Assembly: GCA_039621445.1 (NCBI GenBank)
Contig: CP154954.1
Location: 25,680,954-25,744,953, forward strand
From: Euglena gracilis
Taxonomy: Eukaryota
Length of the DNA stretch: 64,000 nt
Reading direction: 5' to 3'
The notes beneath the pieces are model-generated. The model was not told the origin of the DNA. It searched no databases and saw only the letters and a list, made by a program, of their open reading frames with translations. A program made the translations under genes and the position numbers. Below, piece after piece: positions 6,901 through 43,396 of the stretch. Position 1 is the first letter of the stretch. Every line of letters begins with the position of its first letter.

Positions 6901-7757
6901 TACGTACCCCCCCCACACCGGCGCCGACAAGGCCTATGTCTAAATAGGTACGTACCCCCCCCAGTACCTGTTGTACCTATACAGGTACACGCAGGGATAC
7001 ACAAAGGTCCTAGAGGGTACATATAGGTCGGCAAATCCCTTGTGTTTCCAAGTCATTTTGGTGGGCAATTCCCTTGTGTTTCCAAGTCGTTTTGCGGGGC
7101 AAATCCCTTTTGTTGTCCAATTGCTCGGGGCCCCAAAATAACAAAATCCCTTGTGTTTCCAAGTCGTTTTGGGGGACAAATCCCTTTTGTTGCTCAACTG
7201 TCGGAGGGCCCCAAAATAACAAAATCCCTTGTGTTTCCAAATCGTTTTGGGGGGCAAATCCCTTTTGTTGCTCAACTATTGGAGGGCCCCAAAGTTAAAA
7301 AATCCCTTGTGTTACCAAGTCCTTTTGTTGTGTACCTGCGTGTACCTGTACAGGTACACGCAGGTCCTGGGGGTACGTACCCCCCAGTACCAGCTTGTAC
7401 CTGTACAGGTACACGCAGGTCCTGGGGGGTACGTACCAGGTACGTACCCCCCAGTACCTATCGTGTACCTGCTTGTACCTGTACAGGTACACGCAGGTCC
7501 TGGGGGGGTATGTACCTGTTTAGACATAGGCCTTGTCGGCGCCGGTGTGGGGGGGTCGGACCTGGTACGTACCCCCCCCCCGCGCGCCTTGTACCAGGTA
7601 CGTACCTCCCCCAGAACCCCCCCCACGGCCAGGCTGCTACCTTGAGGGGCGGTCTATTAACCCGTCCATCCATCCATCCATCCGTCCATCCGTCCATCCA
7701 TCCATCCATCCATCCATCCATCCATCCATCCATCCATCCATCCATCCATCCAACCAT

Positions 7758-7788
<31 letters not shown>

Positions 7789-10700
7789 CCCGTCCATCCA
7801 CCGGCATGCCCAACCCATCGACCCACCAGAAACAACTGTGTCAGGACAGACACGGGTGTCTACTGAATCTTAGGCGGCCTAACTCGCACTTAGCTTTGAA
7901 AATGACTGTAAATTTGCGCCGACGCGCAAATCAAAAAAAAAGTTCTGTTTTCGAACACCGTGGCCTGAGACTCAGGACAATCTGAAAATAGTGTCTCCCT
8001 GCACCCCAGGGCCTGGGGACGAAAGCAACGACTGGGAACTTCACAGTCTACGGGCACAGCGCTCCCGAGTCCCAGTGTGCATGAACACAAAGCGGCGGGT
8101 GATGAAACGAGGGTACTCCATTACTCATTTGCACTTTGGCACAAATTTTTTAAATTACAAAGAATAAAACCATTTGCACTTTGGCGTAATTTTTTTACTT
8201 TTTTGTGATTCAACATGTGGGTGACCATTGCCGCACTTGCACAATGATAACAACTTTTGTGTCAACATGTGTTTCCATTGCGCCAAAGTGCAAGGGGTAA
8301 GCTCATGAAGAATGGAAAATTAAGAGTTATATTGCGCCAAAGCGCAAGTAGAAATACAATTTTTAAAATTGCAAAAGCAACGTGGCTTGCGCCGAAGCGC
8401 AAATATAACTGTTTAAAACATATCTCACAACGGAGGGAGAGAACGACCCTGGTAGAATATGAGCACCAGAGGGGATAGAGCACAAAAATGCAGGACAGGG
8501 GGACGGAAGCTACTCTCAGTCACGTTGCCTTAAAATTAGTCAACGTTGCGCGTTGGCGCAAGAGCCACGCAGCTTTGCGATTTTCAAAGGTGCATTTCTA
8601 TTGCGCTTTGGCGCAATAGAACTCTTAAATTTTTATCCTTCAAAAGCCTACCCATTGCGCTGTGAAGCAACAGTTATCAATTTTAATTTCTCACTTTTAT
8701 CACTGCGGGTGGAGAGAGCAGTCCTGGAAGCATCTCATCACCAGAGCGAACAGAGCTAAGGTGGAGGGAAGCCTTGCCTGGGACAGGAAGCCAACCCCCT
8801 GGTCTGTGAAAACAACCACCAACTTCTTGATATCCAGACGTGTCTTGTCCTATGCGTTGTAAACCCAACTTCCAGTGCCGGAGGTTCCTCCCACTTGCCT
8901 CGCAATTAAGCATGCCTGAGGGGCCCTTCTTTTTGGCCGACTTTTGAAAGTCGGAAAATTTCTGTTTGGAAAAGAACAGGCAGCAGACGAACCCTGGGAA
9001 TCACAGCCAAGGAAACAGTTTTGGACGCTGAAAAGGTGTTTTAAAGAAGCTCGTCACCCCCCTTTCTTCACCCAGGGTTTGAAGCACACAACTTTGGGGA
9101 TGAGCGAATGGAATTGAGAAATCGACAGGGTCCATCAACAACGGCGGAGAAGGGAAGACATGCTGACACACCTTTTTCGGTAATTTGCAACCCACCAGAC
9201 AGCCACATCACACCGGGCAGATGGAGGGCATTATTCAGCCGAAAAAGGTCTTTCTGTCAACATCCCAAAAAAAAACCCACTTTGTGCACTGAGTGCAAGG
9301 TCAGTGAGGCTCCACAGCCTACCGTCCACGATTCGTCTTATTGGAACAGCCACTCCCTCCCCAGTGCCTGAATAGTTCAGAAGCACCAACTGAGCTTCAG
9401 TCACAGCAGCCCTCAAAGGCCCTCATCATTCTCCTCTATCGCCCAACTTCTCACACAGCACGAACACTTTCAAATGCATCTGCCACATTGCGCTTAAGCG
9501 CAAGTTAAAACAAAAGCCCCTGAGCTTATGGGAGTCCCTCTGATGTGTTACGGTGTGTCGGGGGTCCCTTTCTGCACGGCCAGTGTGCGGGCTTGGTGAG
9601 GAAATACATTGCGCCGAAGCGCGAACCATCATAAATAAAAATGAGAAGTGCAAACATGCGGCTGACATGTAATCTGAATGAACAAGCAGTGCATTATGTA
9701 AGCATGTCCCTTGCCCTTCGGCGCAATGCATTTCCTCGCCAAGCCAACACACTGGCCATTCAGGGAGGGGCCCACAACACACCATAACACGTCAGAGGAA
9801 CTCCCATAAGCTCAGGGGCTTTTGTTTTAACTTGCGCTTAAGCGCAAATTTTTTAATTTGCGCTTAAGCGCAAGTTAAAAAAAAATTGCGCTTAAGCGCA
9901 ATGTCCATAACCATTGCCTTCTGTGTCTCACCAGACGTTGGAACAGGTCCATGGGCTTGCCCTCAATCCCCCCAACCCCACCCAGGGATCACAACTCTGT
10001 GACCTGCGGTTTTTTCCAACTCTTCACAACGTGTATGTCTTAGGCGGCCGTGAAGGCACTTAAGGGTTTTCGGGCCCAAAAACCGGATCGTCCGCGGTTT
10101 TGGGACCGGCCGTGGTCAAAACCCCCACTGGGAACGACATGAGCCGAACGCAGGGCGCGATGGCGCGCACCTGCGCGCGTGAGGACACGTCCGGCGTGCG
10201 CACCTGCGCTTGAAACAGACCCCAGAATCAGGCGCAGGTGCGCACGACGGATCAGTAAGATCAGGCGCAGGTGCGCGTGATCCTACCGTGAGATTGTGGC
10301 AGGTGCCTGGGTGCTGGGGCCCCGGAACGAGTGGCGGCAGGGAGGGGGCACACTTTGTTTTGAGGGCGACGCCTGCAGAACCCACCAATCGCTGCAGGAC
10401 CGAGAGTCGGTCACCGGAGGACTCCGGAACACACATCAGACACACGGGGTCCGCAAGCCCACCGCCGCCGTGTTGGACACCCCCGAGCCAGATGGGCCCA
10501 CACCCAACACCGAACCGCGCGCACCTGCGCCCGGGGACAGGCACACTTCGGTCGCAGGTGCGCACGATTGGGGTGTGGACGAGGGACCCCGTGGTGTGGG
10601 TTGAACGGCCAGGCCAGAGGGGCGATGCATCCCGCAAGTGTCGTGCGCAGGTGCGCGCGTTGGGGACCCCCCTGGTTGTTGCCCACGGCGGCCCCTGTTT

Positions 10701-13700
10701 GAAACCTGTGGCCGCACACACAACGGAACGTTCGGGGAGCGGGTGTGTCCCCCTTGGGACGTGCACGCGTGCGTGAGGGACGTGCGAGCACTCGGTGTGG
10801 GTGGTGCAGCCAGGTGAACACGTCCGCTACACAACGCCCGACTGCCTCAACGGTGGTCCGGTGCTCGCATTTGCGCTCTGGGGGCAGCGACGACCTGCGC
10901 CGCCAGCACGGACCCCGAGACGTGGGTCCCGAGGGTGACAAGGCAGGGCACGAAGGAACCGTGTCCTCTAGCGCAGGTGCGCTCCAGGATGCCCCGCAAC
11001 CGGTGCTTCGAGACCCTTGCCACGGGCCCACCGGCGCAGCACTGGGAACGACGTGAGCCGAACGCAAGACGCGATGGGGCGCGCCTGCGCTCGTGAGGAC
11101 ACGTCCAGCGAGCGCACCTGCGCTTGAGCAGACCCCAAAATCAGTCGCAGGTGCGCACGACGGATCAGTAAGATCAAGCGCAGTCCCACCATCCGGGGTG
11201 TTCCATCCGACCTGGAGGGACACCGAGGACGACTGCCGTCGTCATCCGGTCGCAGGTGCGCGGGAACCAGGTGGTTTTCCCTTGGAAACTGTGAATGCTG
11301 CGGTCAGTATGAAACCTGCATGACTTTGACAACCGAAGGGTGCGATGGACAGACACTGAGATACAGAACATCCCGGACCAGGTGGGAGGCCCCGGCGGTG
11401 CCCGGGACCGGAGTTTGGTATCCGAAAGTCCCCGAAGGAGTTTCCAACGGACGCGATGCAAACCGCGTTTTGAGGACCTTTGCAAAACCATATGGTATTT
11501 TGGGCTTTTCGCAACAGGCAGGAATTGACAATCTGCCAAAATTTTGTGTCGCATTTTACTGGGTCGAAATGGGCCAGAATCCAAATTTGGCGGACCGAAA
11601 CGAACAAAAGTCACAATTTGTCCTTTGTGAGGGGGCGGTTTCCAATCAGTACAGGCAGTTGGGCCTCGAGAAAATTTCCCCATCCACCGGAGGGCTGCGG
11701 ACCGGGGGGTGGCGCCTTCGATTCCGAACTTTGCGTCGCCCCATGATTTCACACTGGCCATCGATGGGATGAGGAAACGACACTTCCCTGCGTTTTCGTT
11801 TCCCAGGTGAAAAGGTCTGGTGGGTGATGCCCCCGGCCCTTCCTCCCCTGAAGAAGTGGCGACGGATTCCGGGTGTCCAGGCTGGGGGGCCCAACTAGGT
11901 GAAATCGGCGGCCCACAGGGAGAAGGGGGAGGGCCGTCGGGAAAAGCCAACCCCGACGCCAGTTGCGGGCGGGGTGTGAGTCCGTCCGCAGACACAAGAC
12001 CCGGGGTCCTGCTTGTTCAACGCTGCCAGCAACCCTGCCCCGACGACCTCAACCACGGGTGAACCTCCGCCGCCTGGGGGCTGGGGAGTTCAGGAGAGAA
12101 GACCCGGGAGCTATCCAGGCCCCCGGACAGGGCGCTGGTTGTGGTGGCGTCGGCGGCCAGGGCACCGGGTGTGATCCCCACAGGGATGGAGCGCGTTGGA
12201 TTGGCGCGCACCTGCGCACGAATCTGCCCCTCCCTGCTCCCCATCTTGAACCCACCCACCGAATGCATAGGAGACACAAGGTGTCGTGCGCACCTGCGCG
12301 CGTTCGGGCCCAGCTCCCTCCATACGGTGATGGGCGACGGTCCTCGCCCATCGGCCTCCCACCCTCTGCCGTCACCGGAGATTTGCACACCGCCTGACCG
12401 CTAACAGTGACGGTGCTGCAGCGGCTGCAGGGAGGGGAGCGGCCTCGAGTGGTGTCGGTCGCACCTGCGCGCGCGGTCACGCCCACAACGGGCGTTGCTG
12501 CAGTCCGGCCAGGCGGTGCTGCCCGTCCCAGCCACGCCCGACCCCTCTGGAGGGCTTGGCCGTGGCCCCACGGCCAAGCCCTCAGAGCCTGCAAAGCCTC
12601 CTCCCCCTCAGTCCGGCGCGCGCACCTGCGCCTGACAGCCCCCCCTTGCGCCCTCGCGGGAATGCCCTCCCGCCCGAGAGCACGTCCCCTGTGGGCACAC
12701 AATCGCGCGCACCTGCGCACGCAGCACTGTCCCACACACAGGGTTGGCTGTAGACTCATGTATGGGGTGGCTGGTGTGGGTAGCACGCACACGAGGGGGG
12801 CTGGTCCGGCACGCTCGCCCGCTCCCCTTTCGCACCCCCAATTGGGGCAAGGATGGAGCTGTGTGTGCACCGGGAATGTGGCCTGGCGGTGAGGTGCCGG
12901 CGAGCAGCACGCGGGCGGCGGCAACCCACCCTCCACCCCCCCTTTGGCCCTCCGGTCCCACGACACACCCCTTGATCACACACCTGCGTGGCCCTTGTCG
13001 ACCGGGACACTCTGTGCGAACGATTGGGCCGTCCCGCCTCACCCACGGCCAAAACACCCCTCCTTTTGGCAAAGAAAAAAATCTCACGGAAACGTTCCCC
13101 GAAGAGCACGCCGCCGCCACGCTTTCACCCTCGGACTTCGCTTCCCCTCCCTTTTGGCCTTCCCCAGTTGGTCCCATTCCCTCTTCCCGCCGGCTGCCCA
13201 GCCACGGCACCCGGAGTATCCTCGCCCACCTCCCAAACCGCACTTTTGAGGCCACCCCTTCACCCCCCCCCTCCGGCCTCGAAAGTGCGCCAAACGCTTT
13301 TCGGGGGGTGCCAAAGAATCAAGCGCAGGTGCGCGCAAGCCGGCAGGAGAAAGCGTCCGCGGTCCGCGGCCTGCCGGGCTTTCGGGCACCGTCGGGCATC
13401 GATTTTTTTTGATTTCGGCCGCCGGCGTGGGTTTCAGACACGGCCGGCAACAGTCGGTGGACACCAAAAAACCGGCCAAAAAAAAGCGTCCCACACGCGG
13501 TCTGCCGGGGTGCAAACCCCGGTAAACCAAAAACAGCGGGACACAAAAAACGAGAAGCCAGCGCCGGCCAGGGTTTCAAGCACGGCCACCCCCAAAACCG
13601 CGGACGCAAAATTGCATTCGGTCTCCTCGGGCGCACCTGCGCCCAAATCGGAAAAAAACCCTTAAGTGCCTTCACGGCCGCCTAAGTATGTAGAGTCCAC

Positions 13701-16700
13701 CCTCTGGATGCCTCAGCAGGCAACCCTTCAGGCACACATCGCAGAGCCTAAAAAAAAAGCAACAAAAAGTGCCAAATGTCACCCAGCCTGTGTGGCACCA
13801 TCCGGGGAACACTGTCAAAGCTTCAAAAACGAGGGACTCGCAACGGGGGTTTCGGCCCTTTTTTGGGAAAATTCACGTGTCCCAGCGGTCAAATCCAGGG
13901 TTTTGACCCTTTTCAAAATGGTGCACAGGCTGAAAAACAGGCTATAAAAAAAACTCCAAAATTAGGCCTGTTCCCCAGGTCCCAACATCGGAAAATGATG
14001 CACACGCCACCGTGGAGGGTCTCCGCGGAACCAGGGGGTCAAAAGGATGGGTTCTACCGCCGGGTTTCAAAAAGATCGAAAATTTGCGCGAAAGCGCAAA
14101 CTAAAAATCAAAACCTTAAGTGCGAGTTAGGCCGCCTAAGTGAATCTGCTGTCAGAAATTAAAAGAAACACACATGTACACACGTGTGCAGAGACAAACA
14201 CACCTGCACATCCACACACATACACATACACACCCAGACACACCTTTTCACCTCTGGTTTGAAATAATCATGTAACCCCCCCAAGACCCGAACAATAAGA
14301 CCCACCGATTTTTTCGATTTTCGACCTTTTTGACCCGAAATCTGTGGGTTTCGGGTCACCAGGGGTCAAAAACGGGGCACCAGGGGTCGAAAAACGCTCA
14401 TTTTAGGCTCAAAAACAGTTTTTCTGGGGTCCCCAAGAAGACCCCCCTCCCTGATGGCGCAAAGCGCCAGAGACAGTGAATTTTTCCTCTGAAAAATTAC
14501 CAAAAACCCCAATTTAAGATGCAAAAAAATGAAGGAATTCCAAAAATTTTGGGATTTTTGACTTCAAAAAAAAACATGGAAAAAAGTCAATTTGTACCAA
14601 ATTTACATGGGGCGCGAAAGGCCAAAGAACCTGAAAAAAAAATTCTTCGGGCCCGGATCGGTCAACAAGGAATCCAAAAATAAGACCCCCCAAAAATAAG
14701 ACCCAGGTCTTATTTGGGGGGGGGGGGTTAACCATGCAATAAAGAAATGGGCACGGAGCAGCATGGCACTGGCACACTGGCGGCGGCATCCTCGAACGGC
14801 GGGTTGTTGTAGCAGTACGGGCACAGGGTATACGCCTTGTTCTCCCCGCCCTGCTGGTACACCACCAGCTGGAAGCCGTCGAGCGGGCACTCGATTCCCT
14901 TGTACTCCTGGGGAGGAAGGAAACCTCGAGGCACAACGTGGCCTGTTGACAGAGAGTTGACAGGATTTCAAAAAAAATGTGTGGAAGCTGAAAGAGAGTC
15001 CGACTGCTGGGGCCGAAGCAGCCAACTGGCGTGGACAAGCTTGGTGGAGTGGACCACATTCGGTGGGCAAATCAAGAACTGCACTGCAAAAAAAAACTGC
15101 AAAAAAAACCGCAAAAGAATGCTCTTCAAGTCTGTATCGATTGCTCAATACAGCAGTACAGACCAATTGTTACCATCCCTGCTCCTGCAAGCTTCAACGT
15201 TTTTGCAAAAAAAAAAAATGCAAAACGAATTCAGGCTCTTTTGGGGTCACATTGCATTCATATTTCCTCCTGGATTTTCTCACCTTTTTAGCATGTTATT
15301 TGTGATTTTATTTCATTGAAGGCATGCTTCAACTATTGAACTGAAATCGACCCTCGTAACTGAGAAGCACTTGTAAAGATTGTTCCTAAATTTAAAAATT
15401 GCATATCCCGTCCGCGTCTTTTGGGAGTTCTAAATTTCATTGAAAAACGAATCATCGTTGTTTTAAAACAAGAGGAATTGCAAACAAAAAGCAATTTCAA
15501 TCATTCTTGCCATCAACATCCAACACCCTCAGATGACACCAGTGGTGCTTCTTTGATGCTTTATGAATGTCACAATAAAATGCTTCACATCTGCTTTAAT
15601 ACATTGATTTTAATATGTGGCTAACTTAGAATCACAGATCACGTGTTATGATTTTGCGCAGGAAGAAAAAAAAACTCAGATCCTGCTTTACGCATTTCAT
15701 GTACAGATCATACAATTGCTTACCGACCCCCGGGGGGGGGGGAGGGGGGTCACTCCACTTTTTTAAAAACCAGTCAGTCACTCATTTTCAAAAAACCAGC
15801 CAGTCACTACCCCCCCCGGGGGGGGGGGGGGGTCGGCCACTCAGAAAAACGGCCACTTTCCAGTCACTTTAGGCCATTTTAGGCCCAAAAAAAATTTCCT
15901 CACTCAAGTCACTCAAGCCACTTTTGCCCACTCCTGGCCGACCCCCCCCCGGGGGGGGAGGGGTCCGGGCCAAAAACCAGTCAGTCACTCTAAAAAAACC
16001 AGTCACCCACCCCCCCCCGGGGGGGGGGGGGGGTGGTCAGTGCTTAAGCAATTGCCTGGTACAGATTTCCTCTCTTCTTTCTGGAAAACAATGAAAGCCT
16101 TCAAGCTGTTGCTTTTGTGAGATGCAAATAATCCTGCGACAAATTTTCAAAGTGAAAAAAAGCACAAAAAATGAAAGCATGCAACGTGATTTTGTGTCAA
16201 TGCAGCCAGCTAGACTAAAAGACTGGTCCACCTCAGCAGAAATGACAAGAAGGTTGAGAAGCAAAACGATGTGATCCTTGCTGTTTTTGCCCAAATGGAG
16301 CCAACCTTTCAGGAATGGTTGCTAAGCTCGATATTACCAACGTTGAATGGCAAACTGCTCGTTGCGTTCAGGAAGTATTGGGATATGTCGTGGTCCATCT
16401 CACCCGGATTCATTGGGTTCAAAACGTTATGCTGCAAAAAACTGCAGATATGCAGCAGACATTCATTTAGTGTGGTTCACAAAAGGCGTGAGAACCAGAA
16501 TTTTTTTGGTGTCCACAGATGAACCACAAATTATTTTTGGTGTCAAGTGAACCACAATTTTCCTTTTGGTGTCCACAAATGTACCACAAAAAGTTTATGT
16601 TCACAATTTTTGTTGTCCACAAAACTTGATTGTGAATTAATAAAAAACTCAGCACTTTTACAATACAAATGGATTGATCTTTATACACTTTAGACACCAA

Positions 16701-25700: not shown

Positions 25701-28446
25701 AACACGAGGTTTTTCCAGGCAACCACCACCGGATTCGGGGAGGATTGGCACTTAATTTTACTTAGGCGGCCGGATTTGCACTTAAGGGGTTTTTTCTTTG
25801 AAATGGACGCATTTGCGCAAATGCGCAAATTTTACAAAATTTCTGCGACCCTTTACCCTGACACACGGAGAACAGCTTATGAACTGTTACACCCCACTGT
25901 TGAGGGGATCCTTTTATTAAAAACACCAAAAACCTTCTACTCCAGCACATCCCACCATGTGCACAGGTGAAATGGGGGAATCACAAATGCCTGAGAACGC
26001 AAGAAATACAATTTCTGGCAACCACGTAACATTGCTGACCCAGAACTCGAAACCATCCATTTTTTTTCCATTGCAATTACTTTAAATTTCTGACCCTATT
26101 CAAGACATTTGCTTGCCTGTTGACAATGACTGTCCTCATGGACCGCCCTGATCCCCATGCTTCGCCCTAGGCTTCTTCCTTGTGCGTTCCAAAGCCACAG
26201 AGGAGTCTGAAGCCATCGGGCCATCTTCGGGGTCTGACACTTTAGCTGAGGGAAAAAATGCCTTAAAACCCCTTAAAATTTTTTTAAAATCCTCAAAATG
26301 CCTTAAAAAACCTTTAAAAACCTTTAAAAACGCCTTAAAATTTTTTGCAAAATCTCGCCTTAAAAAAAATAATGCCTGGTCCAGACCCCCATCCAGTACA
26401 GGAGGGGGGTTACACCCTTCTTATATCGAACTCTGTTCAGGCCCCGGGGGTCGAACCTCCCCCGTGCAAACACTTACGGGGACCCAGGGTCTGTTTCAGG
26501 GTCAGTTGGTTCAAGTACCTCAAGGTTCAAGTACTTCAAGGTTGGTTCAAGTACTTTAGGGTCTGTTTCAGGGTTAGTTGGTTCAAGTTCAAGTGCTCGC
26601 AGGGACGGGGATTGGGCAGTGACGCTCCGGGGGCCGGGGGGCGGGGGGGGGGGGGCATGCCCAGGGCCCCGCGGCTGACACACCGCCAGGAGGCGCCGAG
26701 CTCGTTCTCCGTCGCGCTGCGCATCGGGGTGATGGGCGGGTGGTCGCCCACGTCCACCCCGCCCCGGGGGGCACTGACCCCGTCCTTAAGCAGCGCCCGC
26801 ACGTACCCGCCGTACACTGTGGGGGCGACACGGGGCTCCATGCACGGAGGCCCGGGCACGCAGTGGGGTGGACAGGGTCCTTGCCCACATGATGGTCAGG
26901 TGGGTTGACAGCACACTGGCGATGCAAATTGTTCATCAGGCGCAGGAAACCGCTCAAATATAAAACCCCGAACCCTTCAAATGTAAACCCCGGCTGATAA
27001 ACCCCGCCACTTCTAAACAAATTCTCCCTCGCGGCGACCCAACAAAGAGACAGCGTTTAACCCCTTCTCGTGGTGAAGATGAATGAAAGGCACCGGGATG
27101 GGATTGGAACACGGCGGCGGCCCCCCGCAGGTCGAACGAGGGGTGGAACTTGGTGCTCTCCGTCCGGGGGTACGAGATGTAGCCCGCGGTGTACAGCTGC
27201 TCCGCCATCTGCCAGGAGGCGTGGGCACGCCGCGATGCAGGGGGGCATGGCCGGGCTGCAGGGATTTTTTTTAAGACCGGGGGAGGGGGCGTCCCCCCAC
27301 CCACCCACCCCCTGGGGGGGGGCTGGGGGGAGGTCTTAGAGGGCCCACTCACTTTTCCCCGAAAAAGGCCAAAATCGCGAAAAATGCTTAAAATAGCACC
27401 ATTTTCAAAAAGCCCCTGGGGGCTCGGCCGGACCCAACCACCCTACCCCCCTCCCCCCACCGGGGTCCAAGACTAAAAAAAAAACCCTGGCCAGGTTGCT
27501 GGTTTCTTGGCTGCCAGACAAAAAAAAAACACCGCGGGGGGGGGAAACAAGGGCTCAAAAGTGAGCTGGTTTTTGAAGTCTGGGTGGGCATGCACAAATA
27601 AATTCAAGAACAAGTATGTTGACCCCAAGGTCATCAGCAACTCGGAAAAAATCGACGGCTGTCTCACCAGGGAGGGGGCTGTGATGGAGGGGGCGACGTC
27701 CCACGGCCAGGGCTGGACGGGAACGCCGGGTGGGGGGGGGACGACCCCCCACCCACCATGGCACCGCCCAAAGAAATTCCCTCATCGCAAAAAGAAAATT
27801 TCGACCAAAAAATCTGCCCCCAGAGATATACGGGAAGGGGTGTGGGGGGGAGGGTCGGACCCTCGCCACCCACCACTGCACCAGGATGGGGGTGGGGGGG
27901 TTGACTCCCCCACCCACCACCCACAGGTTTGCGGGATTCCCATACAGCCATTCCCATGGCTCAGCAGGACCTCAGCCCCATGATACCCGCATCGCCTCGT
28001 GGGGCCCAATGCCGAGGCGCGTGGACGCCGCCTTCAGCATCTCCACCGTGTTCATGCCCCCCGGCTTGCTCCTGGTGAAGGGGGGGGGCAGACCGGCAGA
28101 GGCATCCCTGGGCCTATGGGCCCTGGGCACACATTTGCTGCGCACTGATGATGCGCGCGAACTGTTGCTGCAGCACAGGTGCTACCCGGGAATCTCGTCG
28201 AGACCATTGCCATTGAAGCGAACGAGGAAGGGACGTCAGGCAAAAAGAAAGAGATCGATTGGCAACGTGGCAAACAGTAGCCTTGATAAATACCTGGACA
28301 AGGAGGGATGGATTGATAACTAGACAAAAAGCATTTATCACTGCTATGTCCCTCAGACACGTTCAGTGTCCAAAAACCTCTCCTGGTTGATTGATTTTTA
28401 TTAGTATTGTGTATATAATATTATATATTATTATACATATAACACT

Positions 28447-28477
<31 letters not shown>

Positions 28478-31400
28478 ACCCATATGAACGTACCTTTCTC
28501 CTTGTATTCCGCCAACCGGTTTCAACGCTTCTTTACACAGCACCTGCCCCCCAATGGCAACTGTCTGTTCTGGCCTGCATACAGGCAAGGGAAGGGGAAC
28601 ACTTTGTCTCCTTCTTCTTCGTCACGTCGATCACCTTAGCTACCTTTTTGTCTGCCACCATCTGAAAACCGCGAGGAGGGGCTTGGGAAATAGGCAGGGC
28701 GAAGTCGTTCCCGAAAGAAAAAAAAATGTGCCAGGCGCACCCCGACACAATGCAATACTGTCCCGGACACGCACCCTGGCCACAACCAAGCCGGTGAACG
28801 GCAATCGATCGGAAAGCAATTTCACTGCACCAACATTCACGCATGCAGGGCCTATCTGCGCCATCTGGCGACACCAGTTTGTTTGCCGATTTTATTCCTG
28901 CCCCCTCCCCCACATAAAAAATGTAAATCGGAAAGCAGAAAAGAGGAATGACCGACTCAACAGGGACCCAGTCCAGAAGGGCAAGGCATGAGGTGTCCGA
29001 GCCACAAATCCTTTCGTCCGCTTCCACAAGCAATCCCCAACCCCCCCATTGATGGCGAAAGGCCCTTATTCAGAGACGGCGGGGCTGCCGCCACAGCACG
29101 CCGCACGCCTTGTGCAGGGTCTGGGCGATGGGGAGGTCGAAGATGCGCCCGCGGTCCCACTCCAGGGTGAATGTGTGGCCGCCCTTGAAGCAGGTCGGCA
29201 CCAGCCGCCAGAAACTCTCTGGGAGGGGGCGTGGAGCTTCGCCATGAGTTATGAATCCACGGCAAAGATGCATCCCGGCCAGGGGTTTTTTAGGGCCCGG
29301 GGTCCGGACCCACCCACCAACCCCCTGACCCCCTGGGGGACCCCCCCGGGGGGACTTGGGGGATGCTTCCGCACCGTGTGCACCGTGTGCGGCACCGTGT
29401 GCACCGTGTGAGAAGAATCACTCTACAAATGCCCAGCTTTCACAAATCGTCAGCAGTGCCTCATCTTGCATTCTTATTTTAGTGTAAGCTGAGTGATGTT
29501 GAACAGCAGAGGGGGAAAGATGATTTGTTGTCCAAAGAGCAGCATGCATCATGTTTCAGGCTGGTGTTGCCCCAATCGGTCCATGATTGTGTGACAGGCA
29601 AGGCTGTAGATTTGAATGAGTGGGATGAACGGGCAAATCAGTGACGGTAGATGGAATTCATCTGTTTGCGGGGTATGTTTGACAAAATATTTTGCACCAC
29701 CATCATTTCGTCACCAAGCACCTCTGATGATGCTGGGCGATGCTGGGCGATGCTGGATTTTTGGAGACCAGAGGTAGGGTTCCGATGCTGGGCAATGCTG
29801 GGCGATGCCGGCATTTTTTTTGCCTATTTTGAAGAATTAATCCCGTATTTATGATTAATAAGCACTTTTGGCCACTTTTTCTGACTGCTTTCGGTTAATT
29901 TTGACTGCTTTTGGGCATTTTTTTTGGCCCATTTTAAAGTACTTTTGCTGCTCTTTGGACATTTTTGGTCAATTTTCACCATTTGTGACTGTTTTTGCCA
30001 CTTTTGTCGGCTTTTGCCCATTCGCGGGTTAGGACTGTCAAAGGTGGGTTGCCGACCGCAGCCGACTGCAGCCGACCGCGCAACTTTTTTCTAATTGATG
30101 TCGATTTTTCAGTGAGAATGAGGAATCAGGCTCATTTTTATCCCAGATTTTGAGATTTTTCTGGCTCATCTGGTTCATATTGTCATTTACGGCGATTTTT
30201 GGCCGCTTTGGGCATTTTAGGTCGCTGTTTTCCCCTTTTGGCCCATTTGTCACCGTAATTCACCAATTTTGACTTATTTTGACCATTTTTGGCCACTTTT
30301 TGCCCACTTCTTGCAATTTTGGGCCACTTTGTCCTGCTCTTGGGCATTTTGGGCCATTTTTGACCTTTTAAAGCCATTTTCGACCTTTTTTTTGTTATTT
30401 TTGCCCCTTTTTTGGTCTATTTTTGGTCCAATTTGACCATTTTTGAGCATTTTGCGCCAGTTTGTTGCCAAAAGTGAACAAAAGCTGCTAAAGTGACCAA
30501 AATTGGCCAACACCACTTTGGACATTTTTTTTGTTATTTTTGTCTGCTTTTGGTAACTTTTTGGTAAATTTTTGTTTTACACCTGATTCTTGCCACACGG
30601 TGCCACACGGTGCACGCGGTGCACACGGTGCACACGGTGCCGCACACGGTGCACACGGTGCCGCACACGGTGCACACGGTGCCGCACACGGTGCACAAGG
30701 TGCCGCACACGGTGCACACGGTGCCGCACACGGTGCACACGGTGCCGCACACGGTGCACACGATGCCGCACACGGTGCGGAACACACGGTGCACACGGTG
30801 CGGAAGCATCCCCTTGGGGGGACCACTTGGGAGTAAATTTTGGGGTCCAAAAAAAAAAACTCTCGGCACTTCGTGCCGAAAATACAGGAAAACCCTGCCT
30901 CCGGCAGGGTCCACTTGGCCTGACCCCCCCCCCGGGGGAGGCTCGGCCGCGACCCATCCACCCCCCCCACAGTTCTGGCGCCGCAAGGCAGAGGCACACC
31001 AGGCTTGAAAGACATGATTTCGTCATGTCGCTTTACGCAGAACCCAAGGGTCGGTGTTTGGCAGGGCCCGTAGCTGATCAGCCTGCGGCCAAGACAGCCA
31101 GCGAGGGGCTCTGATTGAGTGAATATTTTCTTGCAATGAGCCCTGAACTGCGCAAACATTTGCAAGCCCAACCACCATTCCAGGTATAAAACTTGTTGTT
31201 CAAAATACGGAAGAGATCAGGGGGTTGCATCCCCCCCCTGCCGGCAGTCCAGCTCAGAGGCTGGTAAATTTTGGATGGCTGGAAAAAAGGCACTGTTTGA
31301 CTGCCCCCTCCTATTGTGGTCCCAATGCCCAGGTCGAACTGGGTTCACAAAGGGTCCAACTGGGGTAGTTTCAAAAATCCAACAGAACTGATTCCCGAAA

Positions 31401-34275
31401 TCAACAACATACACCAAATTTGAGCTGGGTGGTCAACTTTATTGACGAACTTTTCCCATTCAACCCATTTCATCACCCACCAAAGCAAAGTTACACCAGG
31501 CCGTGCAGGCGAGAACACAGGAATTGAAACTTATTCGTGGGTCTGGCTGGAACCGCAAGGGGTGGGAGGGTCCAGCCAGTCAGCCGCCTTTTCAGGAAAG
31601 AAAGCTGATATTAAATCCCGATGTATGTGTTGCCTTAACCCCAGTCAACAGAGGGGCTGACTGTTCTTTGACCGAGACACAAAGGGAAGGTTGTGTCTCG
31701 GTCAAAGGTTGTAACCGAGGCTCAGGCAAGGCAGCACTAAAAGCCATAACGCCCAACCTCATCTGGGAACAACGTTTTGACACAGGCAAACACACTTCGC
31801 GTCCAGCGTGTTGTACTTGCCCTGGAAATACTTCGTCTGATACCGCGTGAAGGCAACCCCAACCTTCAGATCCAGCTCCTGGGCATCGGGGTGGGTGGGG
31901 GGGGGGAGTGGGATGGTCTCCATCTGTTCATGCCGCCAACACACAAACCAGGCAAGTGCGGACTGAGGACCCAAAGCACATGCTCCCCAACCTGCCGGGC
32001 ATCGACGGAGAGGGACTCAAGCTCGTTCGGCTTCACCAAAGCATCCATTGCCCTGTGGGGAAAGGGTCCGAGGTCTTTGAGGTCTTTGTTAGCCAAGCAT
32101 ACCACCGGGCTTCTTCTATTCATCAACCCCTGGGGTGCCATGTGCTGTGGGGTACCTGCCTGTCACGATCCATGGGGAGTTGCTATACAAACTGCCCACC
32201 CCAAAACTGCGGAGGTGGGAAATGCCCCTCCTCCTCCTCCTAGAACCCCCTGCGAAAGCCTGGACTTGACCGAATTGAAATGGACTGCAACAAAGAAGCG
32301 AATGCCAAGCCACAATGCCAATAAATAAAGTCACTGGTCTTAAAGTCGCAAGAGACTCTCAAATTGTCCAAGCAATGAATCAACGCCAGCAGAGACACAG
32401 GAAAGTGTCCAGTCTGTATGAAAATGACCAAACTGCACACATTACTAATCATTTCTCTTTCGACAACTGGCATGCATTAAACCACCCCCAAAGATCATGA
32501 ACACAAACCCCGCATGCCAACCTCTGGATGTCACTGGCGGTGATGGCAGAGAATTTGGCCCGGTAAATGTTGGACATGCCCTGGTTGCCCCGGATGTTCT
32601 TCTCCACGATGGAGATGACCTGCAGGGGGGGAATGCAATATGGACCCTCAAAAATGCGACACAAAAAAAAATGCAAACAAGCATAAATGAACACAAAAAA
32701 GTGCAAGTGGCATTTAAAATCCCTTAGGAGCTCCCCGGGATGTACATTGCTGGAGAGGAGTGAGGAAAATTGTCGGCTAACCCGGGGAAAATTTTTTATT
32801 TGCATAAAAATAAGCATTTTGTTGACAAAAAAAGCAAAAAAATGACAAAAAAAGACAAATTTTTGATCTTGGGTGAAAATCAGAATCAACGAGGAATTCT
32901 TTCATAGGTCAAGAAATTCCTTAAGAAAAATCCAAAAAATCGCCGGAAAAAAACACAAAAAAAAAACGCCAAAAATGTCTTTGTGTTCCCCCTGTGGCTG
33001 CATCGGTGCTGGAGATTTTCTCTGCATCTGTTGGGACCATTCTCGAACTGGAAAAAAAATCAGGTTTGATTGTATGTTTTGGGGGGGGGAGCCCACGCAA
33101 AACAAAAAAAGGGGAAATCTTCTCAAAAATGTCTAAATGTGCTGAGTCGAAACTGAAAACTGGCACCCCCCCCCCCTGGGAAACTGTCACCTGACAGGTC
33201 GGCCAAAACCGGGGACCCTGACAACTTCCTATCATGACAGGTTGGCCGGTCCCACGGACCCTGACAATTTCCTGGTGGGGAGCCTGACAGTATCCTGGGT
33301 AGGGCACTTCAGGGGGAAATCAATGAAAAATGACTCCAACAGGTTGGACGGTACCGGGGACCCTAACAACTTCCTATGCTGACAAGTTGGCCAATACCCG
33401 GGACCCTGACAGTTTCCCAGGCGGGACCCTGACAGGATCTCGGGCATGACAGTTTCCCAGGGGGGTAGGTAGGAACATAAACAGAAGACGCAAAAGAAAA
33501 CATTGAGTTTCCTGGCATAAAAAAAAACGTCAACAAATGCAAAAAAAGCCAAAATAACACATGCGTGTTTCCCCCTGAGGGGTTGGGAATACTTCAAAGC
33601 AGATGTTTTCCCCTTCTCGATCACAATCCAGCCACAACACGAGGTAGTCGATACCCTTGGACTCTGCCTGAGGAGGAAGAGCGCAAAGCCAACAAGCTTG
33701 CATAGGGGGGGGGTGAGAGAAGAAAACACACACAAGACGCTTCCTTGGGACTTGATACCAAGTCAGGCAGGCTCAGGCCCCCCCCCCAATAGACCACACA
33801 TCCTTCTGCAAAAAGGTCATTGACTGGTTGCAAAGGGTTCAAAGACTTCAAGGTCAGATGCAGGGGAGGGGCTCGTTGCCGCGAGGTTGGGGTTTTAGTG
33901 TTAACAGATGAAAGGAGTTAAGTTGCAAAATACATATTTCTCAGGTTTTTTTTGTTTCAGAATTGGTTTTCACCGACCTTCCCCCAATATCCCAGGCACA
34001 GTGATGTTCCACGAATGTACCATTGGGGCTTTTGAGGATGATGCATATGCAGTCAACGGGATTTTAAAGACACACGGTGCCTTGAGCAGGGTTTTCCCCC
34101 CAGAAGTGGTCACCTGACAAGTCAGCTGATACGGGCCCAAGGTGATAACGTCCGGGGTGGGTCAACCTGACGGGGTAACAACACAGCTTTCCAGGGGGGG
34201 GGGGTATGAGAAAAGGGAATGCCTTGAGGTGGGCCACGACGTTGGTTGACGGGTTGGACTCGTTCTTCAGGGTCT
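3854..34275 (-). CDS. TOP3B: DNA topoisomerase III beta (type IA), 25 identified exons; canonical N-terminal ~85 aa not found
   Basis: Motifs in order: [17 protein letters not shown] (Toprim), [49 protein letters not shown] (catalytic Tyr), [28 protein letters not shown], Cys zinc-ribbon repeats and an RG-rich tail. All 24 junctions are phase-consistent with GT/GC-AG ends. Confidence 0.96.
4508..4661 (-). CDS. TOP3B: TOP3B exon ([13 protein letters not shown]...KSPL...[14 protein letters not shown])
   Basis: Last zinc ribbon, KSPL and GCxxCD motifs. Confidence 0.9.
5476..5524 (-). CDS. TOP3B: TOP3B exon ([16 protein letters not shown])
   Basis: CNxC motif; phases fit both neighbours. Confidence 0.85.
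6268..6401 (-). CDS. TOP3B: TOP3B exon ([15 protein letters not shown]...[13 protein letters not shown])
   Basis: CxxCxHPxC motif; cag/gt ends. Confidence 0.92.
6581..7633. mobile_element. Foldback-like element built from GTAC motifs
   Basis: Ends ggggttctgggg...gtacgtacctgg are inverted; internal ~77-bp tandem units at 7033-7330. Confidence 0.65.
7663..7800. repeat. (CCAT)n microsatellite
   Basis: Direct reading. Confidence 0.95.
7869..14140. mobile_element. DNA transposon (outer), CTTAGG-TIR family
   Basis: 24-bp perfect TIR cttaggcggcctaactcgcactta; 5-bp TSD tgaat (7864-7868, 14141-14145); no intact transposase seen. Confidence 0.88.
10039..13686. mobile_element. DNA transposon (inner, nested), CTTAGG-TIR family
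   Basis: 32-bp perfect TIR cttaggcggccgtgaaggcacttaagggtttt; 5-bp TSD tatgt (10034-10038, 13687-13691); GC-rich; about 20 gcgcacctgcgc motifs. Confidence 0.92.
14778..14907 (-). CDS. TOP3B: TOP3B exon ([14 protein letters not shown]...[16 protein letters not shown])
   Basis: CPLD...CPYCYN motif; cag/gt ends. Confidence 0.94.
15720..16048. repeat. Dispersed ~320-bp repeat (aaaaccagtcagtcact motifs); second copy at 21065-21362
   Basis: Colinear similarity between the two copies. Confidence 0.65.
18112..18178 (-). CDS. TOP3B: TOP3B exon ([22 protein letters not shown])
   Basis: RLHCxxCD.TY.LPQ motif; cag/gt ends. Confidence 0.93.
18395..18452 (-). CDS. TOP3B: TOP3B exon ([20 protein letters not shown])
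   Basis: Zinc ribbon RCGxC; cag/gt ends. Confidence 0.92.
18637..18687 (-). CDS. TOP3B: TOP3B exon ([17 protein letters not shown])
   Basis: MDELMExSF motif; cag/gt ends. Confidence 0.9.
19982..20039 (-). CDS. TOP3B: TOP3B exon ([19 protein letters not shown])
   Basis: LDxFKxKFxYF motif; cag/gt ends. Confidence 0.9.
20349..20441 (-). CDS. TOP3B: TOP3B exon ([31 protein letters not shown])
   Basis: IDxELVLP motif; cag/gt ends. Confidence 0.93.
20821..20879 (-). CDS. TOP3B: TOP3B exon ([20 protein letters not shown])
   Basis: PTxLG..LVHGY motif; cag/gt ends. Confidence 0.93.
21390..21465 (-). CDS. TOP3B: TOP3B exon ([25 protein letters not shown])
   Basis: GIGTDAS motif; cag/gt ends. Confidence 0.95.
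21671..21788 (-). CDS. TOP3B: TOP3B exon (LPELKVGDE...[16 protein letters not shown])
   Basis: [10 protein letters not shown] motif; cag/gt ends. Confidence 0.95.
23097..23270 (-). CDS. TOP3B: TOP3B exon ([19 protein letters not shown]...[15 protein letters not shown])
   Basis: Read directly from the sequence (not in the ORF track frame); cag/gt ends. Confidence 0.93.
25122..26378. mobile_element. hAT-like non-autonomous element
   Basis: TIR caggcattatttttt; perfect 8-bp TSD gtccagac; subterminal ccttaaaa repeats; carries a solo CTTAGG TIR at 25761-25786. Confidence 0.88.
26684..26816 (-). CDS. TOP3B: TOP3B exon ([10 protein letters not shown]...[22 protein letters not shown])
   Basis: DHPPITP motif; cag/gt ends. 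Confidence 0.95.
27094..27208 (-). CDS. TOP3B: TOP3B exon with catalytic tyrosine ([18 protein letters not shown]...SHP)
   Basis: GYISYPRT motif; cag/gt ends. Confidence 0.96.
27259..27489. mobile_element. hAT-like MITE (older)
   Basis: caggg(a/t)ttttttt TIR; degenerate TSD; related copy at 48059-48310. Confidence 0.6.
27987..28071 (-). CDS. TOP3B: TOP3B exon ([28 protein letters not shown])
   Basis: NTVEML...LG motif; cag/gt ends. Confidence 0.93.
28603..28661 (-). CDS. TOP3B: TOP3B exon ([20 protein letters not shown])
   Basis: cag/gt ends, phase fits neighbours. Confidence 0.88.
29109..29218 (-). CDS. TOP3B: TOP3B exon (ESFWRLVP...[17 protein letters not shown]), GC donor
   Basis: WDRGRIFD motif; phase requires AAG|GCGTGC donor. 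Confidence 0.9.
29359..30813. mobile_element. TIR element (PIF/Harbinger-like), nested in a caggg...ccctg MITE (29280-30897)
   Basis: About 31-bp TIR ggggatgcttccgcaccgtgtgcaccgtgtg; 3-bp TSD ttg; subterminal cacacggtg repeats. Confidence 0.75.
30590..30803. repeat. 21-bp minisatellite (cacacggtgccgcacacggtg)
   Basis: Direct reading; expanded subterminal repeat of the 29359-30813 element. Confidence 0.92.
31000..31082 (-). CDS. TOP3B: TOP3B exon ([27 protein letters not shown])
   Basis: [12 protein letters not shown] motif; cag/gt ends. Confidence 0.95.
31796..31878 (-). CDS. TOP3B: TOP3B exon ([28 protein letters not shown])
   Basis: Highly conserved motif; cag/gt ends. Confidence 0.95.
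31992..32052 (-). CDS. TOP3B: TOP3B exon ([20 protein letters not shown])
   Basis: SVDARQ motif; cag/gt ends. Confidence 0.93.
32522..32619 (-). CDS. TOP3B: TOP3B exon ([11 protein letters not shown]...[14 protein letters not shown])
   Basis: RAKFSAIT motif; cag/gt ends. Confidence 0.93.
33170..33466. mobile_element. MITE
   Basis: TIR cccccctgggaaactgtca; internal accctgaca repeats. Confidence 0.65.
33593..33667 (-). CDS. TOP3B: TOP3B exon ([25 protein letters not shown])
   Basis: Toprim DxD motif; cag/gt ends. Confidence 0.95.
34223..34275 (-). CDS. TOP3B: TOP3B exon ([18 protein letters not shown]), GC donor
   Basis: cag acceptor; AAG|GCATTC donor; aligns by eye to the 'TEKKEANPKLNMVKFLQ' region. 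Confidence 0.7.
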
Positions 34276-34589
34276 CTGTGGAAAAGCAGGGAGAGGAAAT
34301 CCTGCGATCATTCGGGAAACGTTATCGCTGGAGAGTCAGCACCCTGCTGGTTTACAATCCTGCTGGTTTGTGCTGAAGGTGCACATGCTGCTTACCGGGT
34401 GACGCAAATAGGGCCAAGGGTGGGATTGGTGCTCTCGTACATCAAACGGAGGGAAACACACACCCACTGTTACGACACTTGGAACTGGTTCTGAATCATT
34501 GGCTGAAGTGGCTTGGATACTGCAGCCGCCCGTAAGAACACAGGGAGCGATATTACATCACACACCACAGAATACGTCAGCGAGACATC

Positions 34590-37130
34590 ACACAACTGAT
34601 GTGTGGTTGTGGGCGAAAATGCGCCCACAAACAAAATTGTTTGTGCGCGCAAATGCGCGCACCAACGTGTTGGGGAAACTGGTATAGGGATGGTTTTGTG
34701 CAATGGGAGACAACGAACAACATGTCTGTGTTAAAGCACACTGATGATTACCATCGACCTACAAGGTTTTTGAACATGATAGGCGGTTTGGTGCGAGCAT
34801 TTGCGCAAATAAACACAATTATGTTTGTGCGCACATTTGCACAGATGCGCACACAAACATTTAATCAATCGCTTCAAAATGGTGTGTTTGAGCGAGCCTT
34901 AGCGCACGCAAACAAAGTTTGTTTGTGTACACAAATGCGCAAATCAACATACATCAGTTGTGCGACACCATCTCCTCGTCCGTGACAGCTGGCAAATGCA
35001 ATTCCACATGCCAACCATTGGTTTGCACCACGAGGATTGCATGGTGATGAAATTTGTGGTGAGAGGTAGTGTGTAATGTTCACTTGAACATGGCATCTGA
35101 CTGGCCAAAATTGGCCTGCCTTACGTGTGTACATTTGAACTGCTGTTCTCTCCGGCCCGAACAGCCGGTTGTTTTGGCGTCATCCGTTTGGCAGTTAAGT
35201 GTAATGAATTGATGACGTGCAAACGACCTGTGACCGTTCGGCACCTTTTCTGCAACAGCGCTGCGTTACAAGAAGTCAAAATTTAGCACTTGAAATACCC
35301 GGGATGTGTCGGGCCGGAGTCCGTTTTCTGGTTATTATCCACCATTTTTCCCATGACAAAAGTCAAAAACACCAGTTTTTATGCATAATTTGTGGGGGGT
35401 GAGTCCCACAGCTTTGATGCAACCAACCGAATGGCAAAAGTTCAACAATTCCTTGCACCCAAAGTAACAGGTGTTTGAGGGCTATCTCTCTCCGGCTGTT
35501 GGTTGCCATGCACTGGCACCACGTCGTCCCCCCAGTCTCGCGGCCCGATTGCGGGTTATAACGTGGCCGTGCGCTGGGTGTTGTTGCACCGGGGAGGTCG
35601 ACCAGCCTGGTGGGTGCTGAAGCATCAGCAGCTGATGTGGCTGCAGCAGCTGAGCCCAAGCCGCGGGCCAGTGGCAGGGCCCTTGGGACCCTAAAATTGG
35701 TGCCGGTGGACGGGTGCCGTTACCGGGTGGCTGCGCACCCACCTTCAGGAGATCCTCTGTCTCCATATTTTAGGGGACCTGCCAATGGACCAGAAACGGC
35801 ACCCCAATACCATGTGCCGGAGGAGACGGTGTAGGCATTTGGGTTGAACCCATTCAGAAGCCACTAAAGGTAGCTGTTGGAGGGCGAAATGAGGCTGCTT
35901 TTTACTCCTCCATTGGTGGTTCATTTGCGTGTTTGCGCGCATCACGTAGTTGGTGGGTGCAAATGCACAAAACAACCAGATGTAAATTGTGCAATTTCTT
36001 TCATGTTGTTCATTTGCGCATTTGCGCCCACAAACAACGTGATGCGCGCAAATGCGCAAATGAACCACATCTGCTGCTGGCGTTTAACGGTGGTGTTTCC
36101 GTCACACCCTTCTTTGTGTTTATGTGCGCATTTGCGCCCACCAACACAAACTGTGTTGATGGGCGCAAATGCGCGCATAAACACAATTTTTGTTTGTGCG
36201 CGCATTTGCGCCCACAAGCCTGTACCATCAACAAACAGTGTGACAAACCCACAAAAATATGATTCTGGATGGCCCACTGGTACGAGCCGTCACGACCCCT
36301 TTGTCACGCCATTTATCGACGGTGTCAGTTCATGGGCGCTAAAGCCCAACCCTTGAAGGACAAAATTGTGTTTATTTGCGCAAATGCGCGCACCTACATA
36401 ATTATGTTTGTGCGAGCATTTTTGCAAATAAACACAATTTTGTCCTTCAAGGGTTGGGCTTTCTTCCGCTGGGTTCTTTGCCACAAAACTGGTTTGCGGA
36501 TCCCGGGCATAACTTGGGTGGAAGAGAGAGTCCCCTTCATTCCCTGTGGACCCTATTTCTTCCCCTCTGCGCTTCCCTTGCGAAACACCCCGCACTTACC
36601 TTCCTTGCCCTGCGTCCTTCCTCCTGGCTTGATCACACCACACCCACACACCCTGGCACCTCCTCCCCAAGCTTTAACAAACAACCAAAAAACGCCACGA
36701 CAAGGCGCCGCAAGCAACACAGTCCAGCAAACACCCAGGACGCACTCCGCTGGAAGCTCGGGCTCACCCGGGGAAGCAGCCGAAAAGAGCAACAAGGGCA
36801 GTAAAGGTCCCGTTCCTGTAACTCTTTTTTTTGCGCTTTTTTCACTCCCAGGGGGGAAGGTTCCGGGGGTTTCGACGTGCGAAATCCGTTTCCGGCCCCC
36901 TCAAAAAAAATACCATTTTTTGCCAAAATCCGGGGTCACACCGCCAGAAACAGATTTTTGCTCATTTTTAGCACTCTCTTGTCACCGTGTTTTCAAACCA
37001 CCCGGAGCTACACAGCCGAAGTCAAAAATTTTGGAAATTTGCGCAAATGCGCAAATCAACATAATTATAATCAAATCAACATAATAATAATAATAATAAC
37101 AAAACTTAAGTGCGAATTCGGCCGCCTAAG
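34590..37130. mobile_element. Truncated CTTAGG-TIR family element (right TIR at 37105-37130; left limit approximate)
   Basis: TIR cttaggcggccgaattcgcacttaag on the minus strand; many gcgcaaatgcgc motifs; 35220-35410 is homologous to 25485-25670. Confidence 0.65.
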
Positions 37131-38329: not shown

Positions 38330-39901
38330 CATCCCACCCCCCACCATCCCCGGGGGGGGGGGGGGTCTGGGGGACCCACTTTTGGGGGAGGTCAATTTTG
38401 GGAAGAAAAAATTTCGGCCTCTTTGCCTCTTTGCACTAAAAATAAAGGGAAACCCCCACCCACTCAGCCCAACCCCTTGGGGGGGGGGGGGTATGGCGGA
38501 CCCACCAACCCTCCCCCCATTTTCCCGCGGCCCAACCTAAAAAAAAAGATATAATTCCCTCCTCCAGCAGCATATTCAGCCGCGAATGGGTCCAAACTGG
38601 GTAGGATTGGCCCCCAGTTTCGACTCTGCCATTTCGCCGGGGTAAAATTTTCGTTCAAAAAAATAGATTTTTCGAAAATATTTCGAGAAAACGAATATCA
38701 TTCCCGGTAGTGTCTGACTGACCAAATGTACCCCTGGAGGCCCTCTATCGCCCCCCGTGTCAGCGGCCATTTTGGCCGCCGACACACCTGGTCCGTGTTC
38801 CGGGGCGCTTTTGTGGCCCAAAACGGCCATTTGGAGGTGTTTTTGGGCCATTTTCTTTGGGTCAAAAAATCGATTTTTCCAAAATATCTCGACAATGAAG
38901 CAAAATCAAAGAAAATGTCCGGAGAAAAAAAAAGAAGCCTTGGAATGCCCTATCCAACCGTGCTTTACTTTTCCCCCAACTCTTCGTGTAGCCCAAGTAA
39001 CGGCCATTTTTCGGCCAATTTTGGCCATTTCTGGGGCATCTTGGGCTGTTTTCGAGGTCAAAAAAAAACCATGTTTCCAAAATGTTTCGGAAATGAAGCA
39101 AAATCAAGCGAAACGTCCGGAGACCTAAATTGAAGCCCTTGGAACGCCCTATCTAACAGTAATCTGATTTCCCCGCAACTCCCCGCCCAGCCCGATTTAC
39201 AGCCATATTTCGGCCAATTCTGGCCATTTTGTACATGCACAGTTTTGGCCCGTTTTCAGCCATTTTGGGTCAACAAAAGTCGAAAAAATCGAAAAAAAAA
39301 AAAAAAAAAAAACTGTTTACGAACCGAAAATGAGCGTTTTTCGACCCCGGCCCCCTGTTTTTGGACCGAAAGCCACGGATTTTGGGTCACTTCTGGGTCA
39401 AAAAAGTTCCGGGCTGGGCCTGCCGGACTGTGCCAGTCCGCCAAGCCGCCGGCCGGGCCCGGGCCGGGACGTGCCGGGCTGCCAGGCTGGGCCAAACCGC
39501 CCTGGCTGCCACACGCCCCAACCACCTGCTGCAGCATGGCACCATCGCATATGTAAAGCATGCTTGTGCTTACCAACCGGGGGGGGAGGGGGGGTGGGTG
39601 CTATAGGGTGCCTGCCCCTAGCAGGCACACCCCCCCCCCCGGGGGATAGGGGTCCGGACCGGACCGGACCCAGAAAATTTTCAGTCAAAATGGCCTTTTC
39701 CGGGCCCCCGGCGCCTTCGGCGCCGGGGTCGGAGGGGGGTGCCTGCTAGGGGCAGGCACCCCCCAAAACCCTACCCCCCCCCGGGGGGTCGGATCGGGTG
39801 CTATGGGGTGCCTGCCCCTAGCACCCACCCCCCCCCCGTGGAGTAGGCACCCGACTAAGCGCAAGCCTGATGTAAAGAGCTCAGCACTACACAAAACCTG
39901 G
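38330..39901 (+). mobile_element. Asymmetric sub-TIR family (copy C, 5'-truncated)
   Basis: Near-identical to 43810-44580; same 3' end aagagctcagcactacacaaaacctgg. Confidence 0.7.
39559..39869. mobile_element. hAT-like MITE
   Basis: TIR ca(t/g)gcttg(t/c)gctta; perfect 8-bp TSD atgtaaag; empty site in the paralogous repeat near 45193. Confidence 0.88.
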
Positions 39902-42201: not shown

Positions 42202-43089
<888 letters not shown>

Positions 43090-43396
43090 CAGGTGCCCAT
43101 ATTAGGGCACTGCGCACCTATTAGGGGAAAGCACAAGATACTTAATCTTCCACCACTCTTTTTCAGCTTTTCCCTTCCTGTAATGTCAAGCAATGAGTCA
43201 AGTGATTAAGTGTCAAATTTGGGCTTAAACGATGGAAGTATTTGGAGAAAGAGAGATCTGAGAATTGTGTGTGCTTGGTGACCTGAGATGTGACACTAAT
43301 TTCTCCTTTTGTGGAGCGGTGTACTTTTAGGAGGTAGTTTCAGACCACTTATTAGGGCTGTGCATAATTTGGGCACTGCGCACTTATTAGAGAGGC

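Follow-up and report, generated by a model that had tools for sequence, protein, structure and literature searches.

Within a 64,000-nucleotide stretch of Euglena gracilis DNA (part of contig CP154954.1, assembly GCA_039621445.1; hereafter, the window), we identified a genuine and clearly delimited group of non-autonomous transposons that is very abundant; its members are bounded by terminal inverted repeats (TIRs) and flanked by 5-bp target-site duplications (TSDs). Two of them, A and B, are complete and nested one inside the other, and two further fragments, C1 and C2, retain one end each. We consider it very probable that all four are class II transposons of the TIR, cut-and-paste type, that they represent three families, and that these are mobilised in trans, most likely by one transposase. 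Element A extends from 7869 to 14140 (6272 bp including B), as delimited by its TIRs and TSDs, and its own DNA, which is non-coding, amounts to 2624 bp in two segments (7869-10038 and 13687-14140). Its left TIR, CTTAGGCGGCC-TAACTC-GCACTTAGC (7869..7894, plus strand), forms a 24-nt perfect inverted repeat with 14117-14140, and its right TIR, which has the same spacer, TAACTC, was recognized by a pattern match at 14115..14140 on the minus strand. The duplication TGAAT flanks the element at 7864..7868 and 14141..14145. Inside A lies element B (10039..13686, 3648 bp, 63% G+C), whose TIRs (10039-10070 and 13655-13686) form a 32-bp perfect inverted repeat with the spacer GTGAAG, and whose duplication, TATGT, is located at 10034..10038 and 13687..13691; both pairs of TSDs were read directly from the letters. 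The preliminary description of this DNA, made from the letters and a list of open reading frames, had reported two complete nested elements with the duplications TGAAT and TATGT, and both its coordinates and its sequences proved correct. A 5-bp TSD is present in both complete copies, and the chance of two exact 5-bp matches is about 1e-6.

The ends of these elements follow a strict pattern. We found six matches to the 26-bp end CTTAGGCGGCC-N6-GCACTTAAG in the window when up to three mismatches were allowed (7869+, 10039+, 13661-, 14115-, 25761+ and 37105-), and none in any of 100 dinucleotide-preserving shuffles (mean 0.00). The 11-mer block alone, with one mismatch allowed, recovered the same six sites against 0.71 expected. 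Relaxing the scan to six mismatches added a single match, at 11585 and with all six mismatches, which we take as chance. The only deviating copy among the six is the one at 7869, which has two mismatches and whose inner block reads GCACTTAGC. When the six ends were aligned, positions 1-11 and 18-24 were identical in all of them, while positions 25-26 (A, G) were alike in five, the exception being the left end of A. In other words, five of the six ends agree at all 20 block positions, whereas the spacer varies at all six of its positions. This alignment bears out the conserved 11-bp and 9-bp blocks with a 6-bp spacer that differs between elements, as had been proposed for these ends. The two ends of A share the spacer TAACTC and those of B the spacer GTGAAG, and the single ends at 25761 and 37105 have GGATTT and GAATTC, respectively; the earlier claim that the spacer is identical at the two ends of each element therefore holds for A and for B, and has just these two complete elements as its basis. 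Past the TIR, the six ends continue with GG(G)TTTT and then a T-rich stretch. No other families sharing the terminal pentamer, and no degenerate TIRs, were found in the window. We also considered the TIR as a hairpin, as its blocks resemble inverted CTTARG half-sites, and rejected the idea: four TIRs folded as DNA did no better than shuffles (z between -0.45 and +1.32).

Independent copies of the elements provided a second line of evidence. Twenty public runs from 17 studies, all but one from one organism, matched positions 7000-15000 of the window, and we placed on this region the contigs from X1, X2, X3 and X5, four runs that represent four samples and four studies. In all four runs we found contigs that join position 10032 to 13686 with six shared letters (3, 2, 2 and 4 contigs, respectively). 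The joint reads ...CGTG TATGT AGAG..., with a single copy of TATGT, and constitutes a paralogous empty site of B. Contigs of this kind derive from A copies into which B never inserted, so they confirm the nesting as well as the duplication of 5 bp. Moreover, 84, 78 and 85 contigs in three of the runs split into unlike sequence exactly behind 14140, the letters of their loose ends showing an agreement of 0.34-0.35; X5 had no such row among the matches listed. The divergence at precisely this point indicates that many copies, differing in their flanks, end at 14140. A further joint, from 8253 to 13994, was present in the four runs, with one contig per run and 22 letters on the shorter side, and weakly hints that an internal deletion may have given rise to a short derivative of A, about 530 bp long.

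The two remaining ends belong to incomplete copies. C1 is a lone left end (25761..25830, plus strand) that lies in an intron of TOP3B, the gene for DNA topoisomerase 3-beta; its TIR occupies 25761-25786 (spacer GGATTT), followed by the subterminal palindrome TTTGCGCAAATGCGCAAA at 25812-25829. C2 is the right-end fragment of a C-type element (34600..37130, minus strand, with an approximate inner boundary), with its TIR at 37105-37130 (spacer GAATTC) and eight palindromes of the form GCGC(AAAT/ATTT)GCGC between 34644 and 37055. No partner TIR for C1 or C2 was found in the window. A single element running from 25761 to 37130 is ruled out: the region between the two ends holds TOP3B exons, and the series of exons carries on in order beyond it, so the ends cannot bound one element; besides, their flanks (TTTTA and CCAAA) are unlike, and their spacers differ at two of six positions. 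C1 and C2 are both truncated and belong to a third family. In the same neighbourhood we observed a 240-bp direct repeat, 87% identical, with one copy just left of C1 (25429-25668) and the other within the C2 region (35168-35409).

We then turned to coding capacity. A total of 543 open reading frames (ORFs) were scanned with Pfam, namely 440 stop-to-stop ORFs of at least 70 amino acids from the whole window (493 minus 53 of low complexity) and 103 additional ORFs of 35-69 amino acids from the element regions. None of the 543 matched a transposase, integrase or reverse transcriptase family. The only matches with E<1e-3 were to the families of TOP3B, plus one PT disordered repeat that fell below the cut-off, and the other listed matches were weak (E about 0.005-0.1) and far under the curated cut-offs. 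No protein related to the longest ORF of B was found among 1262 candidates, and Rfam and tRNA scans of the window returned nothing. As no transposase domain is present in the element ORFs of at least 35 amino acids, A, B, C1 and C2 are non-autonomous. They were nevertheless rejected as miniature inverted-repeat transposable elements on grounds of size, which for that class is under about 800 bp: A measures 2624 bp without B, B measures 3648 bp, and the possible derivative of about 530 bp is only hinted at.

The self-BLAST list of the window contained no similarity linking the internal DNA of A, B and the C fragments with one another (E<1e-8). The most striking feature inside the elements is a short palindrome. 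The motif GCGC-N4-GCGC occurs 36 times in the window, and every occurrence lies inside an element (11 in A, 16 in B, one in C1 and eight in C2); in 200 shuffles the motif occurred 1.5 times on average and at most 6 times. The centre of the palindrome differs between families: it is AGGT or ACCT in 14 of the 16 palindromes of B, AAAT or ATTT in all nine of C1 and C2, and mixed in A, whose 11 palindromes are of the type TTGCGC-N4-GCGCAA and have TTAA at the centre in four cases. The palindromes of B occupy its outer parts (10152-11120 and 12203-13639) and leave the middle empty. In five of the six ends, a palindrome ATTTGCGC-N4-GCGCAAAT is located about 45-80 bp from the tip. Three internal palindrome stretches were folded, and two of them folded well (z -2.99 and -2.11), but the B-type stretch did not (z -0.68). 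Element A also contains two foldbacks. One, of 360 bp (9488-9847), has arms of 135 nt that are 89% complementary and have TTGCGCTTAAGCGCAA at their start and end; the second has its arms at 8278-8347 and 8601-8670. Internal duplications in A may thus have borders marked by the palindromic motif. As for B, its G+C (0.63 in the segment 10001-14000) is well above that of A and the surrounding intron (0.46-0.48), which suggests that its internal DNA has a different origin.

Because the families of A, B and C share nothing but their ends, a single transposase, encoded at some other place in the genome, most likely mobilises them all in trans. In the mechanism that we propose, a DDE-type transposase would contact both blocks of the TIR and leave the spacer uncontacted, and hence free to differ between families. 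In the simplest reading, the enzyme would leave these six positions unconstrained, and each family would have taken over from its founder one version of the spacer for both ends. The transposase would cut its target with a 5-bp stagger, and the palindromes might act as extra binding sites for a dimeric DNA-binding domain of the enzyme, by analogy with the subterminal repeats of Ac/Ds and En/Spm elements. B inserted into a copy of A that was already in place. The arrangement is reminiscent of the maize elements Ds (of Ac) and dSpm (of En/Spm), families of which likewise share only their ends, carry motif arrays in their outer thirds, reach high copy numbers and nest within one another. The maize elements, however, have TSDs of 8 or 3 bp, compared with 5 bp here, where the motif is a GC-rich palindrome with four family-specific central letters.

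A number of points weigh against this interpretation or limit it. The transposase is unseen, so we infer both the trans-mobilisation and the DDE mechanism from the architecture of the elements. The left end of B has no palindrome near its TIR. Only two complete copies supply TSDs, and among the joints listed for the four runs we found no excision footprint, no insertion polymorphism and no empty site of A. The junction between A and its right flank (contigs running from 14113 or 14114 to 14352-14403) was present without differences in all four samples. Abundance should also be read cautiously: in X1, the summed contig depth was about 3.5e5-8.7e5 in the bins of A and about 1.4e4-4.6e4 in most bins of B, against 175 in the last bin (14743-15000), but contig depth is not copy number and the reference bin could itself be repeated. 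We therefore limit the claim to A being far commoner than B and both being highly repeated. In X1, single positions were covered by up to 105 different contigs in A and up to 35 in B. The preliminary description had also considered the elements recently active. The intact TIRs and TSDs speak for recent activity, but the presence of the A/flank junction in the four samples and the divergence of B, whose copy in the window carries dozens of letters missing from all other placed copies, leave that part of the claim weak. Of the 108,655 contigs placed in X1, 58,551 were only 90-95% like the window, a count that includes flanking repeats. Just left of A, the segment 7000-7266 reached the highest summed depth of the region examined (7.7 million in X1, compared with 175 in the last bin) and represents a short repeat of extreme abundance; farther along, at 7700-7785, comes a (CCAT)n microsatellite.

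The affiliation of the elements is a separate question, for which we weighed several candidates. It is possible, if somewhat doubtful, that they are non-autonomous members of hAT of the hAT5 kind, with 5-bp instead of 8-bp duplications. Their short TIRs, their many short subterminal repeats and the existence of kb-sized derivatives that are internally unrelated all recall the Ac/Ds type. However, the terminus CTTAG departs from YARNG, the usual terminal consensus of hAT, although this consensus may not hold for hAT5, and no hAT or BED domain was found in the window ORFs scanned. TSDs of hAT elements are usually 8 bp long, and hAT5 is described as a hAT group with 5-bp TSDs (PMC12730594, PMC9004415), the length found here; the group is credited to Kapitonov and Jurka (Repbase Reports 2007, as cited in PMC12730594). 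According to PMC9004415, hAT5 is reported from invertebrates and fish, which would argue against this affiliation. By the published description of hAT5, A and B resemble it in being TIR transposons with 5-bp TSDs. If the transposase belongs to hAT5 or to another known group, the elements would be an ordinary though very successful non-autonomous set that fills the introns of one host gene.

Rather less likely, in our view, is an undescribed superfamily with its own transposase, which would be marked by termini of the form CTTAGG...CCTAAG, a TIR of two blocks, TSDs of 5 bp and GCGC-N4-GCGC palindrome arrays with family-specific centres. The TIR had no matches in the metagenome, viral and prokaryote-genome contig collections, and TIR block 1 combined with the palindrome had none in the metagenome contigs. 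When about 8.4 million papers and preprints were searched with the TIR and palindrome strings, none of the titles listed was on transposable elements, and the TIR strings apparently matched cloning primers, in a literature where protist and algal transposable-element libraries are thinly covered. Among the superfamilies whose TSDs and termini are summarized in PMC10045372, PMC12730594 and PMC6839031, none joins 5-bp TSDs with CT..AG termini; for instance, IS3EU/GingerRoot has 6-bp TSDs and TA..TA termini, Polinton has 6-bp TSDs, and IS481EU has TSDs of 4, 15 or 25 bp and TGT..ACA termini. Nevertheless, it is the transposase, and not the termini or the length of the TSD, that defines a superfamily, and none was seen in the window. 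The elements may already have been described in Repbase or Dfam. Should the transposase belong to no known group, the CT..AG termini, the 5-bp stagger and the family-specific palindrome arrays together would denote a new transposase lineage. In either case, the sharply defined two-block TIR offers a simple probe with which to search the whole genome for the autonomous copy and to annotate much of its repeat-rich sequence. The P element superfamily was rejected, since its TSDs are 7-8 bp long and those found here are 5 bp. The inner block GCACTTAAG may resemble the binding site of the P-element transposase; a literature search on this point returned no papers.

We regard as improbable that the elements are non-autonomous relatives of Transib (the CMCT clade) with a two-block end like that of a recombination signal sequence. 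The layout of block, spacer and block recalls heptamer-spacer-nonamer ends, and in both cases conserved blocks surround a variable spacer, but the spacer here is 6 bp long and not 12 or 23. No RAG1-like ORF was found among the window ORFs scanned. Transib and its CMCT relatives have TSDs of 2-5 bp and mostly 5'-CA..TG-3' termini (PMC12730594); the 5-bp TSDs of A and B agree with the former, and their CT..AG termini conflict with the latter. The preliminary description had taken 5-bp TSDs to typify Transib/RAG-like elements while setting the present ones apart from Transib, which starts with CAC. The second observation stands, as the termini are CTTAGG..CCTAAG; the first is correct as far as the length fits and incomplete in that hAT5 (5 bp) and Ginger2 (4 or 5 bp) share it. 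An origin from Ginger2/TDD-like or other integrase-related cut-and-paste elements is still harder to sustain. Ginger2 has TSDs of 4 or 5 bp according to PMC10045372, which would suit the elements, but of 6 bp according to PMC6839031, so that the sources disagree; Ginger termini are TG..CA (PMC6839031) rather than CT..AG, and no integrase domain was found in the window ORFs. Lastly, the notion that the repeats are not mobile at all, being chance matches or products of local duplication and inversion, can practically be dismissed, as none of 100 shuffles reached six TIR matches, both TSDs are exact, and the contigs revealed empty sites in all four runs, dozens of flanks behind 14140 and a very high depth.

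The gene that hosts most of these insertions, TOP3B, was traced with Pfam and with tblastn, using a relative (P0001) as the query; most exons were 57-93% identical to it. The gene lies on the minus strand, from at least 34285 down to 4501, and has more than 20 exons; no exon encoding residues 1-81 was located. It spans at least 30 kb, its exons are short and GC-rich, and its introns are of the GT-AG type and filled with repeats. The intron that contains A and B separates exons 14910-14734 and 6399-6262, and C1 (25761) is located in the one between exons 26817-26683 and 23272-23096, while C2 (about 34600-37130) is found upstream of exon 34285-34220. Another block in TOP3B, at 29350-30830, lies between inverted copies of GGGGATGCTTCCGCACCGTGTG followed by a minisatellite of the CACCGTGTG type (29359-29410 and 30594-30813), and by its sequence looks like another insertion with inverted-repeat ends in an intron of the gene. 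Beyond the gene, copies of an interspersed repeat with no Pfam domain, about 0.5-0.85 kb long and 70-82% identical, lie at 38549-39384, 44126-44973, 54968-55383 and 62403-62975, and at 42131-43124 a trinucleotide repeat, nearly pure over about 1 kb, reads poly-Q, poly-A or poly-S depending on the frame.

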